Origin: Octopus vulgaris
Taxonomy: Eukaryota
Assembly (NCBI GenBank): GCA_951406725.2
Contig: OX597818.1
Span: forward strand, 110,050,001 to 110,114,000
Reading direction: 5' to 3'
DNA: 64,000 bases
In this document: piece after piece, positions 6,968 to 55,323 of the stretch
How the letters are laid out: the number at the start of each line of letters is the position of its first letter
How positions within the stretch are numbered: the stretch's first letter is position 1
Notes under the pieces: model-generated
The model's database searches: none
Told to the model about the DNA's origin: nothing
The model's input: the letters and a program-made list of their open reading frames with translations, nothing else
Made by a program: the position numbers and the translations under genes

Positions 6968-7158
6968 CTCTTTTACTCTTTTACTTGTTTCAGTCATTTG
7001 ACTGCGGCCATGCTGGAGCACCGGGACTTATTCTTTGTAAGCCCAGTACTTATTCTATCGGTCTCTATTGCCGAACCGCTAAGTGACGGGGACGTAAACA
7101 CACCAGCATCGGTTGTCAAGCAATGCTAGGAGGACAAACACAAACACACACACACACA

Positions 7159-7227
<69 letters not shown>

Positions 7228-7387
7228 GACAAGCTTCTTCCAGTTTCCGTCTACCAAATCCACTCACAAGGCATTGATCGGCCCGGGGCTATAGCAGAAG
7301 ATACTCGCCCAAGATGCCACGCAGTGGGACTGAACCCGGAACCATGTGGTTGGTTAGCAAGCTACTTACCACACAGCCACTCCTGCG

Positions 7388-13503: not shown

Positions 13504-13536
13504 AAAGCAAGATGAAATTATTTGCACCTAAACATG

Positions 13537-14558
13537 AGATCAATAAAATAATTTAGCGCTTCCCCAAAGGGGATCGATAAAATAAGTTAGCGGTTCACCA
13601 AAGGAGATCGATAAAATAACGTAACGGTACGCCAAAGGTGATCGATAAAATAAGTGAGCGGTTCGCAAACGTGATCGACAAAATAACTTAGCAGTTCGCC
13701 AAAGGTGATCGACAAAACAACTTAGCGGTTCGCCAAAGTAGATCGATAAAAATAACATGGCGGTATGCCAACAGAGATCAATAAAATAATTTTGCGGTTT
13801 GCCAAACATGATCGATAAAATAACTTAGCGGTTCGCCAAAGAGGAACTAAGCGGTTCGGCAAAGAGATGGATAAATTAACATAGCGGTGTGCCAAAGGAG
13901 ATCGATAAAATAATCTCGCGGTTCATCAAACAAGATCGATAAAATAGCTTTGTGGTTCGCCAATCGAAATCGATAAAATGACTTAGCGGTTCGCCATAGG
14001 AGATAGATAGATAAAATAAATTACTGGTTCGGCAGAGGCTATCGATTAAACAACTTAGAGGTTCGACAAACGAGATCGATAAAATGACTTAGCAGTTCGA
14101 CAAACGATATCGATAACATGACATAGCGGTTCGGCAAACGTGATCGATAAATTGACTTAGTGGTTCGATAAACGAGATCAATAAAATGACTTAGCGGCTC
14201 GCCAAACGAAATCGGCAAAATGGTGATCGATAAAATGACTTAGCGTTTCGGCAAACGAATGGATAAAATGACATAGCGGTTCGCCAAAGGGATCGATAAA
14301 ATAACCTAGCGGTTCACCAAGCAGGTTCGATAAAATGAACTAGCGGTTCGCCAAATGAGATCGATAAATTGACCTAGCGGTTCGACAAACAGGATCGATA
14401 AAATGACAGCGGTTCGACAAATGGGATCGATAAAATGACACCGCGGTTCACCAAAGGAGAGCGATAAAATGACATAGCAGTTCGACAAACGAGATCGATA
14501 AAATGACACCTAGCTGTTCGCCAAAGTGGTCGACCTAGCGGTTCGACCACTTTGGCGA
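13537..14558 (+). repeat. ~32-bp minisatellite (about 30 diverged units), consensus gatcgataaaatgacttagcggttcgccaaa(c)ga
   Basis: Contiguous tandem units without unique spacers; the unit matches SINE-A internal sequence. Confidence 0.9.
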
Positions 14559-15617: not shown

Positions 15618-15782
15618 AGGTGCAGTAGTGGCTGTGTGGTAAGAAGCTTGCTTCCAAAGCACATGGTTCCGAGCTCAGTTCCACTGCGTGGCACCTTGGT
15701 CTAGTGTCTTCTACTATAGCCTCGGACCGACCAAAGCCTTGTGAGTGGATTTGGTAGACGGAAACTGAAAGAAGCCCGTCGT
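15618..15782 (+). mobile_element. SINE family A, 5' half (split by the 560-bp multimer insertion)
   Basis: Matches the head of 41191-41613; the 3' half resumes at ~17975. Confidence 0.85.
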
Positions 15783-16093
15783 ATATATGCATATATATAT
15801 ATATATATATTTCAACAATTGAGGGTAAAATTAATTAATTAATCAATTTCACCAAGTATTCAGTATACAAAGGGACCATTTCAGGCGAATTCAAATTATT
15901 ACATTATATAAAAGGGCTTAGTAAAATAAATTACTTTGCCGCATACTGAACTCATTAGAAATAGCAGCTAAAAAAACTTTTTCAAAAACTATTTCCAATA
16001 CTTAAAGAAAACCTCTCTCATATAGTGTTTGCTCAATTCAACTCACAAAAGTATGGGGGTAGAGACATTAAAAAATCAAATGCAAAGGTTATT

Positions 16094-16146
16094 TGAGAAC
16101 GTACGTTTCAAGATTAGTCAAAATCGACACTTCTATCATCAGCTCA
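16094..16146 (-). ncRNA. type I hammerhead-like motif (inverted arm copy)
   Basis: Reverse complement of 16577-16629. Confidence 0.6.
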
Positions 16147-16576
16147 GAACTCCCTGGTTTGGATTTGAAAACACTGAAAGTGGGAGCATACCCTTTCGGC
16201 TTGTTATCACTTCTGAAGATCTGCTCAAAACTAACAGTGCCAGCAAATTCAAATATGCAAGCGAAGAATTTCTGCTTTCCCCTTTCCACCAGCGTGGGTT
16301 AAAATCAGCAAACACTATGCTTTTTTCGGTAAAATCCGAGGCATTATATAGAGAGAGATGAATTATAATTTCAACAATTGAGGGTAAAATTAATTAATTA
16401 ATCAATTTCACCAAGTATTCAGTATACAAAGGGACCATTTAAGGCGAATTCAAATTATTACATTATTACATTGAATTTGCTGGCACTGTTAGTTTTGAGC
16501 AGATCTTCAGAAGTGATAACAAGCCGAAAGGGTATGCTCCCACTTTCAGTGTTTTCAAATCCAAACCAGGGAGTTC

Positions 16577-16629
16577 TGAGCTGATGATAGAAGTGTCGAT
16601 TTTGACTAATCTTGAAACGTACGTTCTCA
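16577..16629 (+). ncRNA. type I hammerhead-like motif
   Basis: tgag-CTGATGA-t-aga..gtc gatttt gac..tct-t-GAAA-C-GTAC-GTT^ctca. Stem I tgag/ctca, palindromic stem III aacgtacgtt, non-canonical U-U at the base of stem II. Confidence 0.6.
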
Positions 16630-17136
16630 AATAACCTTTGCATTTGATTTTTTAATGTCTCTACCCCCATACTTTTGTGAGTTGAATTGAGCAAACACTA
16701 TATGAGAGAGGTTTTCTTTAAGTATTGGAAATAGTTTTTGAAAAAGTTTTTTTTAGCTGCTATTTCTAATGAGTTCAGTATGCGGCAAAGTAATTTATTT
16801 TACTAAGCCCTTTTATATAATGTAATAATTTGAATTCGCCTGAAATGGTCCCTTTGTATACTGAATACTTGGTGAAATTGATTAATTAATTAATTTTACC
16901 CTCAATTGTTGAAATTATAATTCATCTCTCTCTATATAATGCCTCGGATTTTACCGAAAAAAGCATAGTGTTTGCTGATTTTAACCTACGCTGGTGGAAA
17001 GGGGAAAGCAGAAATTCTTCGCTTGCATATTTGAATTTGCTGGCACTGTTAGTTTTGAGCAGATCTTCAGAAGTGATAACAAGCCGAAAGGGTATGCTCC
17101 CACTTTCAGTGTTTTCAAATCCAAACCAGGGAGTTC

Positions 17137-17189
17137 TGAGCTGATGATAGAAGTGTCGATTTTGACTAATCTTGAAACGTACGTTCTCA
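17137..17189 (+). ncRNA. type I hammerhead-like motif (second tandem copy)
   Basis: Identical to 16577-16629, offset +560. Confidence 0.6.
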
Positions 17190-17696
17190 AATAACCTTTG
17201 CATTTGATTTTTTAATGTCTCTACCCCCATACTTTTGTGAGTTGAATTGAGCAAACACTATATGAGAGAGGTTTTCTTTAAGTATTGGAAATAGTTTTTG
17301 AAAAAGTTTTTTTTAGCTGCTATTTCTAATGAGTTCAGTATGCGGCAAAGTAATTTATTTTACTAAGCCCTTTTATATAATGTAATAATTTGAATTCGCC
17401 TTAAATGGTCCCTTTGTATACTGAATACTTGGTGAAATTGATTAATTAATTAATTTTACCCTCAATTGTTGAAATTATAATTCATCTCTCTCTATATAAT
17501 GCCTCGGATTTTACCGAAAAAAGCATAGTGTTTGCTGATTTTAACCTACGCTGGTGGAAAGGGGAAAGCAGAAATTCTTCGCTTGCATATTTGAATTTGC
17601 TGGCACTGTTAGTTTTGAGCAGATCTTCAGAAGTGATAACAAGCCGAAAGGGTATGCTCCCACTTTCAGTGTTTTCAAATCCAAACCAGGGAGTTC

Positions 17697-17749
17697 TGAG
17701 CTGATGATAGAAGTGTCGATTTTGACTAATCTTGAAACGTACGTTCTCA
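17697..17749 (+). ncRNA. type I hammerhead-like motif (third tandem copy)
   Basis: Identical to 16577-16629, offset +1120. Confidence 0.6.
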
Positions 17750-17974
17750 AATAACCTTTGCATTTGATTTTTTAATGTCTCTACCCCCATACTTTTGTGA
17801 GTTGAATTGAGCAAACACTATATGAGAGAGGTTTTCTTTAAGTATTGGAAATAGTTTTTGAAAAAGTTTTTTTTAGCTGCTATTTCTAATGAGTTCAGTA
17901 TGCGGCAAAGTAATTTATTTTACTAAGCCCTTTTATATAATGTAATAATTTATATATATATATATATATATGTG

Positions 17975-18142
17975 TGTGCATACGTATGTATGTATTTGTG
18001 AGTCTGTGTTTGTCTCCTTACCATCGCTTGACAACCGATGTTGGTGTGTTTATGTCCCCGTAAACTAGCGGTCCGGCAAAAAAGACCGACAGAATAAGTA
18101 CTAGGCTTATAAAGAATAAGTCCTGGAGTCGATTAGATCGAC
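17975..18142 (+). mobile_element. SINE family A, 3' half
   Basis: catcgcttgacaaccgatg...tagcggtccggcaaaa...gaataagtcctggagtcgat. Confidence 0.85.
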
Positions 18143-29952: not shown

Positions 29953-30292
29953 TTCTTTTATTCTTTTACTTGTTTCAGTCATTTGACTGCAGCCATGCTG
30001 GAATATCGCCTTTTAGTCGAAGAAAGCGACCCTTGGACTTATTCTTTATAATCCTGGTACTTATTCTATCGGCCTCTTTGCTGAATCATTAAGTTATGAG
30101 GACGCAAACACACCAACATCGGTTGTCAAGCGAGGGGGGGGGGGGCGAACAAACGCAGACACAAAGACACACTTAAATTTACATATATATATATGTATGT
30201 ACAACGGGCTTCTTTCAGTTTCCATCTACCAAATCCAATAACAAGGCCTTGGTTGATCAAGGCTATAATAGAAGACACTTTCCCAAGGTGTC
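29953..30292 (-). mobile_element. SINE family A, 5'-truncated
   Basis: ttcttttacttgtttcagtcatttgactgc...ttctttcagtttcc...gaagacactt. Confidence 0.85.
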
Positions 30293-30520
30293 ACATACAC
30301 ACACACTCTCTCTCTTTCTCTCGTTTAACATGCACACACAGTCACACACACACGCACACATATATTTAAATATATGTACATATATATATATATACATATA
30401 TGCATATATATATATATATATATATAAATAAACATATATATGTATGTATATATATATATATATATATACATACATATATGCATATATTTATATATATATA
30501 TATGCATATATTTATATATA

Positions 30521-41190: not shown

Positions 41191-41367
41191 GGCGTAGGAG
41201 TGGCTGTGTGGTAAGTAGCTTGCTTACCAGCCACATGGTTCCGGGTTCAGCCCCACTGCATGGCACCTTGGGCAAGTGTCTTCTACTATAGCCTCGGGCC
41301 GACCAAAGACTTTTGAGTGGATTTGGTAGACAGAATCTGAAAGAAGCCCGTCGTATATATGTATTTG

Positions 41368-41412
<45 letters not shown>

Positions 41413-41613
41413 TTGTGTGTCTGTGTTTGTCGCCCCAACATCGCTTGACAACCGATGGTAGTGTGTTTACGTCACCGTAACTTAGCGGTTCGGCAAAAGA
41501 GACCGAAAGAATAAGCACTAAGTCCAGGAGTCGATTTGCTCGATAAAAGGCGGTGCTCCAGCATGGCCATAGTCACATGACTGAAACAAGTAAAAGAGTA
41601 AAAGAGTAAAGAG
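41191..41613 (+). mobile_element. SINE family A, full length
   Basis: tRNA-like head, ccttgggcaagt CORE-like block, internal TA/TG repeat, tail aagtaaaagagtaaaagagt. Confidence 0.92.
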
Positions 41614-54867: not shown

Positions 54868-55021
54868 GGTGTGGGTGTGTGGTGAGAAGCTTACCTCCCA
54901 ACCACATGGTTCCGAGTTCAGTCCACTGCGTGGCACCTTAAGCAAGTGCCTTCTATTTTAGCCTCGTGCCGACCAAAGCCTTGTGAGTGGATTTGGTAGA
55001 CGGAAACTGAAAGAAGCCTAT

Positions 55022-55118
<97 letters not shown>

Positions 55119-55323
55119 TTGTGTGTCTGTGTTTCTCCCCCACCATCGCTTGACAACCGATGTTGGTATTTTTAAATCCCCGTAACCTAGTGGTTCGGCA
55201 AAAAAGAACGATAGTATAAGTACTAGGCTTACAAAGATTAAGTCCTGCGGTCGATTAGTTCGATTAGAGGCCATGCCCCAGCATGGCCGCAGTCAAATGA
55301 CTGAAACAAATAAAAGAATAAAA

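Follow-up and report, generated by a model that had tools for sequence, protein, structure and literature searches.

The window, by which we mean the whole 64,000-nt stretch of Octopus vulgaris DNA analysed here, contains a 2,137-bp insertion made of 3.8 near-identical 560-bp units. We assign this insertion to the metazoan non-LTR retrozymes as a new member; it behaves like a non-autonomous Penelope-like element (PLE), and we are confident in placing it among non-LTR retrozymes of the PLE type. On balance, we think that it was made by a PLE protein with reverse transcriptase (RT) and GIY-YIG endonuclease acting in trans, probably on an RNA circle generated by the hammerhead ribozyme.

The insertion consists of two head-to-head arms that are 97–100% identical. 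The long arm (16471–17951, + strand) holds 2.64 units, with direct repeats starting at 16471, 17031 and 17591 (spacing 560), and its outer 3′ end lies at what we call site A, at unit position 361. The inverted arm (15811–16466, − strand) holds 1.17 units; it starts 5′ at unit position 347 and has its outer 3′ end at site B, unit position ~445. The 15-nt sequence common to both arms corresponds to unit positions 347–361. At the inner junction we confirmed a match of AATTCAA to TTGAATT, and a 4-nt TACA filler (16467–16470) repeats the adjoining TTACAT. An earlier note on this DNA had described these arm limits, the overlap, the microhomology and the junction slip, and all were found in the sequence. 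It had also described near-identical 560-bp units with one hammerhead each and no protein, a picture borne out by the repeats, the ribozyme cores and the reading frames. The longest stop-to-stop frame of the unit is 111 aa, and none of the three unit frames scanned (0/3) had a Pfam match. The GC content of the unit is 33.6%. The element has no LTR, PBS or PPT layout, its ends being the A and B sites in (TA)n, and it carries no ORF with the RT and GIY-YIG endonuclease of an autonomous PLE. The copies in the window differ at two substitution sites and one homopolymer indel. Read in ribozyme sense, unit position 372 is G,T,T,G in successive copies; the variation reported there as G,A,A,G is real, but those letters mixed the two strands. 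The second variable site, unit position 517, reads T,T,C.

The target was a high-copy SINE-like host repeat, split at its (TA)n tract (left, 15782–15810; right, 17952–17971), and the half-repeat flanks agree with the earlier description of a split repeat, named SINE-A there. The left half lies at 15625–15785 and the right half at 17976–18130 (both +), the latter running on to about 18290. They are two different halves of one repeat, not mirror images. A search with the left half gave 1500 candidates, the top 40 of which were 92–100% identical. The two halves join in other copies of the repeat. Among 11 such copies, the right half was 11–129 bp downstream in nine by script and in one more by eye (L211), and one was truncated; a short (TA)n(TG)n linked the halves of uninterrupted copies in 10/11 (9 by script, 1 by eye). 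Position 15756 was joined to 18020 in contigs of 4/4 public DNA-type runs, and no contig from runs of this type spanned the window locus. Poly(A) is absent from both of the insertion's ends, and a target-site duplication is not delimitable inside (TA)n. Uninterrupted SINE-like copies are also present in the window at 41199–41520 and 54871–55247, and on the − strand at 7021–7381 and 30035–30294. ARAGORN found no tRNA in the window, so the term SINE is based on the layout of the repeat. A minisatellite at 13536–14525 (34-bp unit, about 29 copies) has a unit that matches 18063–18089 of the right half at 81% and was apparently born from the SINE-like repeat, judging by this resemblance.

CTGATGA cores at 16581, 17141 and 17701 (+) and at 16142 (−) are each followed by GAAACGTACGTT and then CTC. 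They belong to type I hammerheads at 16577–16629, 17137–17189 and 17697–17749 in the long arm (+) and at 16094–16146 in the inverted arm (−). The long arm thus contains at least two consecutive complete motifs, with three cores, and the inverted arm contains one. Cleavage in the first unit is predicted after the U at 16625 (GUU). The parts are stem I (UGAG/CUCA), CUGAUGA, an interrupted stem II that opens with U.U and not with G10.1-C11.1, GAAA, and a 2-bp stem III with a palindromic GUAC loop; the segment comprising stem III and this loop, ACGUACGU, is a palindrome. The core is nearly invariant across about 192–197 units. In the 12 hammerhead variants, all 13 pairs were kept, 3 via wobble and none via a two-sided change. 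An Rfam scan at E ≤ 1 returned no hammerhead and only 3 chance hits, so the evidence for the motif is its core nucleotides and how well these are conserved. In isolation, the hammerhead folds no better than shuffled sequences (z +0.5 and +0.8), and the active fold costs 3.7 kcal/mol within the modelled circle. GUU is usually ranked as the weakest NUH triplet. Genome-wide, the cleavage-site triplet was GUU in 1,387 motifs vs. GUA in 6. These six, the sole non-GUU motifs, fill every matched unit of two loci (C5:54196254-54197827 and C31:6493346-6494322). In the retrozyme preprint (bioRxiv 10.64898/2026.07.22.740005), 8/9 Xenopus retrozyme dimers were uncleaved in vitro, and in PMC11167929, hammerhead mutants had no effect on PLE insertion in vitro.

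The copy-number check proposed earlier showed that the unit is multi-locus. Searching with the 560-bp unit gave 221 matches from the 40 of 1584 candidates that were scored, and the exact hammerhead pattern had 1,387 matches genome-wide, with none for the reversed control. Full-unit matches were 95–100% identical, came from many contigs and formed arrays of up to 16 units. The earlier description of a recently active, non-coding hammerhead retrozyme or PLE parasite, copied from multimeric or circular RNA with two primers, is supported. We mapped 52 loci picked by similarity: 39 with the whole unit, including the window locus, and 13 with a 201-bp query. For a second set, we selected 20 further loci by eye among the first 100 pattern matches, with a preference for close opposite-strand matches and arrays. 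The end rule described below therefore applies to a sample of similarity- or eye-chosen loci, in which assembly errors may inflate within-array differences.

Two arms were present at 38 of the 52 loci; the other 14 had a single arm, ending at A in 9 and at B in 5. Leaving out L033 (complex) and L065 (gapped) gave 36 classifiable two-arm loci. In all of them (36/36), one arm ended at A and the other at B. Site A ends fell at unit positions 321–363 (351 in 17/36 and 361 in 5/36) and site B ends at 435–449 (449 in 21/36 and 445 in 11/36), with a median A-to-B gap of 94.5 nt across the 36 loci. In the second set, the A+B arrangement was found in 17/18 simple two-arm loci, with L194 as B+B; L192 was single-arm. 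The probability of at least 53 of 54 A+B loci is 3e-15, assuming independent and equal choice of ends. A related 562-bp family gave A+B in 9/9 distinct two-arm loci, counted by eye. The sole B+B locus is a single case from the most diverged subfamily (about 84%), where the TATATA run of site A has been lost. One locus (L189:2692-4906) has four arms through an extra internal inversion, and its outer ends are still A and B. The outer 3′ ends enter (TA)n in nearly all loci printed, the exception being the A end of L196, and the inner 5′ ends are scattered across the whole unit. The family thus shows the layout of PLE mobilisation: defined 3′ ends, variable 5′ truncation, a head-to-head inverted copy and a tail at one end. 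It is highly likely that these insertions arose by double priming at A and B.

The region around sites A and B is as well preserved as the ribozyme. Across 39 loci, variation at the locus level was 0.14% in the hammerhead, 0.17% in what we call the A-B module (unit positions 295–445) and 2.11% elsewhere, so that the hammerhead and the A-B structure are over 12-fold less variable than the remaining unit. In the first unit of the window, the module (16765–16919, +) comprises a long stem, a hairpin, the AU-rich site A (~16810–16836), a second hairpin (16871–16900) and site B (~16905–16919); the repeat and fold data place it at 17325–17479 (+) in the second unit. In the A-B structure, 96.7% of cells were paired, and two-sided changes were seen in 5/28 pairs. 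Most of this covariation traces to a small number of family splits, and 27/500 shuffles reached 5 pairs. The whole unit is well folded in ribozyme sense only: the modelled sense circle has a folding energy of −137.8 kcal/mol vs. −109.0 for the antisense circle and −112.0 ± 4.9 for 40 shuffles. Sites A and B are mostly unpaired in this fold (0.73 and 0.61 vs. 0.39 overall). The A-B module is likely an RT-binding and initiation element.

Double priming had been suggested earlier in the form of L1-type twin priming on one linear concatemer, so that the two arms would rebuild one continuous ~2.1-kb RNA. In L1 twin-priming inversions, both target ends prime, and the 3′ ends of the arms face outward from a meeting point with short homology. 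The second primer anneals just upstream of the stop of the first cDNA, and the arms are contiguous. The window locus taken singly fits this model, as its B arm starts at unit position 347 and its A arm ends at 361, with the 15-nt overlap. Across the family, however, contiguity within 15 nt was found in 2/36 loci per direction, with 2.0 expected for each. The overlap of end and start is thus at chance level, the window locus is one of the two, and the continuous concatemer is a coincidence. Both outer ends are also fixed family-wide, poly(A) is absent, and more than a quarter of the mapped loci (14/52) have a single arm, which makes L1-type twin priming very unlikely. Relative to L1 inversions, the 560-bp family has a fixed rather than opportunistic second site, non-contiguous arms and no poly(A). 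Fold-back self-priming was rejected as the main route. Equal 5′ starts of the two arms within 15 nt were found in 4/36 loci by exact mapping (2.0 expected), and BLAST ends placed 7/38 within 20 nt (2.8 expected), which is at most a minor excess. Homology of at least 2 nt was present in 9/15 filler-free junctions, compared with 18% under the null. The number of junctions scored as insertions (21/36) is partly due to nearby variants breaking an exact match.

Could the units be only the truncated termini (pLTR arrays) of an undiscovered autonomous PLE? The end structure and the hammerhead are PLE-like, and our partner search covered a small part of the candidates. Against this, arrays of up to 16 units wrap from unit to unit with no coding insert, as do those of sister families with units of 562–594 bp, and family sequence ran into a PLE frame in 0/72 mapped family loci. 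A tblastn comparison of PLE frames with 110 sister-family loci found two neighbouring PLE fragments only. We consider this explanation most improbable. Satellite DNA with DNA-level fold-back, or an assembly chimera, is more improbable still. The window locus is known from the assembly, and many single-unit differences suggest some assembly noise. Such an origin does not account for flanks that are two distinct host-repeat halves, for more than 50 dispersed loci with fixed 3′ ends and variable 5′ ends, or for conservation and folding that are specific to strand and motif. A Helitron or Helentron origin was also considered and set aside, since fixed ends occur on the 3′ side only.

The nature of the RNA template is a separate question from that of priming. 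Units differed by 0.71% within arms, by 0.59% when the two arms of a locus were compared and by 2.40% between loci. We counted 325 locus-fixed variants, present in all covering units, of which 174 span both arms and 23 are private within the sample. Another 52 variants were partial, occurring in some units of a locus, and 229 occurred in single units. The cleavage site was crossed by 79/90 arms, with read-through of up to 16 sites. An RT stop at the cleavage site was tried as an explanation of the 5′ ends and rejected, since 4/90 lay nearby vs. 3.4 expected. Judging from its conservation, the ribozyme is under selection although reverse transcription passes its cut site. The simplest explanation for a conserved ribozyme that is nevertheless copied through, and for homogeneous arrays, would be cleavage and ligation followed by rolling-circle copying, a route that passages of PMC7229834 and PMC4209133 propose for retrozymes and PLEs. 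We accordingly regard a circular template as more probable than a linear one. The 52 partial variants, both window sites among them, are not explained by a single uniform circle; accounting for them takes multimeric templates, subsequent mutation or conversion, or errors in the assembly. The earlier objection that the variants argue against a single uniform circle thus holds for the two sites of the window locus. Across the family, array homogeneity still favours a bottleneck of a monomer or small multimer. The T,T vs. C pattern at unit position 517 does not fit a model in which both arms copied identical units. Partly shared variants that were mapped between arms fell in mixed registers and did not separate a circle from a linear template. 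In four runs presumed to be RNA, contigs covered 28–30 of 30 unit bins, but these contigs are no proof of transcription and carry no strand, end or circle information. One five-unit single arm (L060:3371-6136) has two alternating haplotypes, with period 2 fully kept at 3 sites and with one exception at a fourth, a pattern expected from a dimer circle or from duplication of two units.

In the alternative that we take most seriously, although we consider it unlikely, a PLE would still prime at both A and B, the template would be an uncleaved linear multimer transcribed from an array already present (or monomers strung together through RT template jumps), and the hammerhead would serve another step. 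Unprocessed RNA was the main substrate in vitro in PMC11167929. The 52 partly shared variants, including those at unit positions 372 and 517 in the window, fit heterogeneous multimers, and a dimer on one A-B module would yield the A+B rule with any template. However, repeated linear copying is expected to give mixed and shorter arrays, whereas units are ~3.5-fold closer within a locus than between loci and arrays reach 16 units. The hammerhead is also conserved as strongly as the initiation module. Imprecise jumps would leave indels at the cleavage-site junction, and these are absent; no deletion at unit positions 151–160 was found in about 197 units.

The mechanism that we favour, PLE action in trans on a ribozyme-generated circle, would begin with transcription of tandem copies. 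The hammerheads would cleave, likely as dimers via the ACGUACGU palindrome, and the unit would be ligated to a 560-nt circle, or at times to a dimer or trimer circle. A dimer of the PLE protein may then bind the A-B module, in which an AU-rich single strand comes after each of two hairpins. The protein would cut both strands of (TA)n, which is the target observed. One DNA end would prime at A and its counterpart at B, at a distance of about 94 nt, a step whose outcome is seen as a pattern in the ends. The variable arm lengths likewise suggest that each cDNA extends for 0.1 to 16 units, past the cleavage site, and stops at random. The cDNA ends would finally be joined via short homology or filler, giving the head-to-head layout. 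Passages of PMC11167929 report that a PLE RT begins at two internal RNA sites, that it cuts and extends both strands and that it is predicted to be a dimer; in vitro, both strands used the same start sites. PLE copies with an inverted 5′-truncated arm, and often with a 30–40-bp tail at one end, are described in passages of PMC8557442 and PMC3846280.

PLEs with RT, GIY-YIG and long open frames exist in this genome, with one-sided tails of about 25, 35 and 60 nt. A young family (L104–L108, e.g., L104:2439-4781) has many 781-aa open frames and an overlapping upstream frame of up to 479 aa; its copies end 3′ at either of two sites separated by about 35 nt, and a pattern search found no hammerhead in it. 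In another PLE (L109:2290-5480), which carries a minimal hammerhead variant, there is an inverted arm, and a ~25-nt tail occurs at just one end. An older, very abundant family (L273–L302, 5,697 candidates) has two 3′ ends about 60 nt apart. Taken with the A-B gap, these spacings indicate that tail length in the genome ranges from about 25 to 94 nt. To look for a partner, we ran a GIY-YIG family search and screened 47 + 30 PLE loci by BLAST and with a profile built from 17 A-B modules. Among about 6,000 candidates, 77 GIY-YIG loci were screened, and none was an autonomous PLE that shares the unit or the module. The matches seen near screened PLE loci were neighbouring insertions of sister repeats, and walks upstream from sister families led in every case to another non-coding tandem family. 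Because no partner sequence was found, PLE mobilisation of the 560-bp family rests on the junction signature and not on shared sequence.

In passages of PMC7229834 (Cervera and de la Pena 2020) and bioRxiv 10.64898/2026.07.22.740005 (Li et al. 2026), metazoan non-LTR retrozymes resemble the 560-bp family in being non-coding and low in GC (34% here), with one type I hammerhead per unit and dispersed short and long arrays. Reported units had been called usually shorter than this one, which agrees with a range of 150–450 bp (PMC7229834) but not with the 51–972 bp given in the preprint, so 560 bp is no exceptional size. The 2-bp helix III with a tetraloop and the U.U mismatch at the base of helix II recur in axolotl HHR_Amex2, as the passages of these sources describe it. 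Neither fixed A/B ends nor arms placed head to head are mentioned in those passages (PMC7229834 never uses the word "inverted", and the preprint uses it once). The 560-bp family differs from the published retrozymes in its GUU site, and circles and cleavage are shown there but predicted here. Its 5′ truncation, inverted copy, one-end tail and AT-rich or (TA)n targets are shared with EN+ PLEs as described in passages of PMC3846280 and PMC8557442, and two internal start sites in a structured RNA with a hammerhead upstream are shared with the PAc PLE of PMC11167929. Unlike these PLEs, the family has no ORF; its tail is about 94 nt vs. 30–40 nt, and its pairing of ends is near-strict (53/54), whereas the passages of the PLE papers use "often" or "optionally". 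The MRC1-type elements of Chlamys (PMC8557442) are likewise non-autonomous PLE derivatives with multicopy head-to-tail insertions. According to the same passages, however, they generally match an autonomous family at the 3′ end and belong to a clade without canonical hammerheads, whereas the 560-bp family has a hammerhead and no partner was found for it.

Retrozymes, PLE tails and PLE inverted arms have been described already. What is new is a large, young, protein-free sample that allows both ends to be scored against each other, and with it the near-strict pairing of A and B start sites with a ~94-nt tail, selection on the ribozyme, and PLE-type junctions on a retrozyme. Neither the pairing rule nor the 560-bp family was found in the literature searched, which comprised sources other than subscription papers, supplements and Repbase/Dfam. 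The family links two proposals, PLE mobilisation of retrozymes and circles as templates, which have so far been based on co-occurrence, phylogeny and one in vitro system. The 560-nt RNA offers a compact substrate with mapped start sites on which both can be tested. A more specific reading is possible, and we offer it tentatively, as one that may well prove wrong. A PLE dimer would dock on the two-hairpin module of ~560–600-nt ribozyme circles, with its subunits committed to different start sites and target strands; rolling-circle reverse transcription would proceed simultaneously from both, and the cDNAs would be joined head to head, with no ordinary second-strand priming. If this were true, the PLE "tail" would be the fixed spacing of two subunits and not an optional extension, and the superfamily to which these repeats belong would record the PLE integration mechanism in vivo.

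That superfamily comprises several other non-coding tandem families in which the A-B region is ~70% alike and the spacers are largely unalignable (L078:2505-2786, L111–L160 and L213–L272). The sister families have periods of 562, 566 and 578–594 bp and hammerheads with GUA or GUC sites, and a shared superfamily motif had 3,785 matches with the 560-bp family excluded. The near-equal unit lengths suggest a size constraint. A copy of the 562-bp sister family lies about 38 kb upstream of the window, at C5:110011611-110011761 (L241). Near-identical short fold-back insertions with the same flanks occur at four places on C1 (L268, L269, L271 and L272), and their shared flanks suggest segmental or tandem duplication after insertion.
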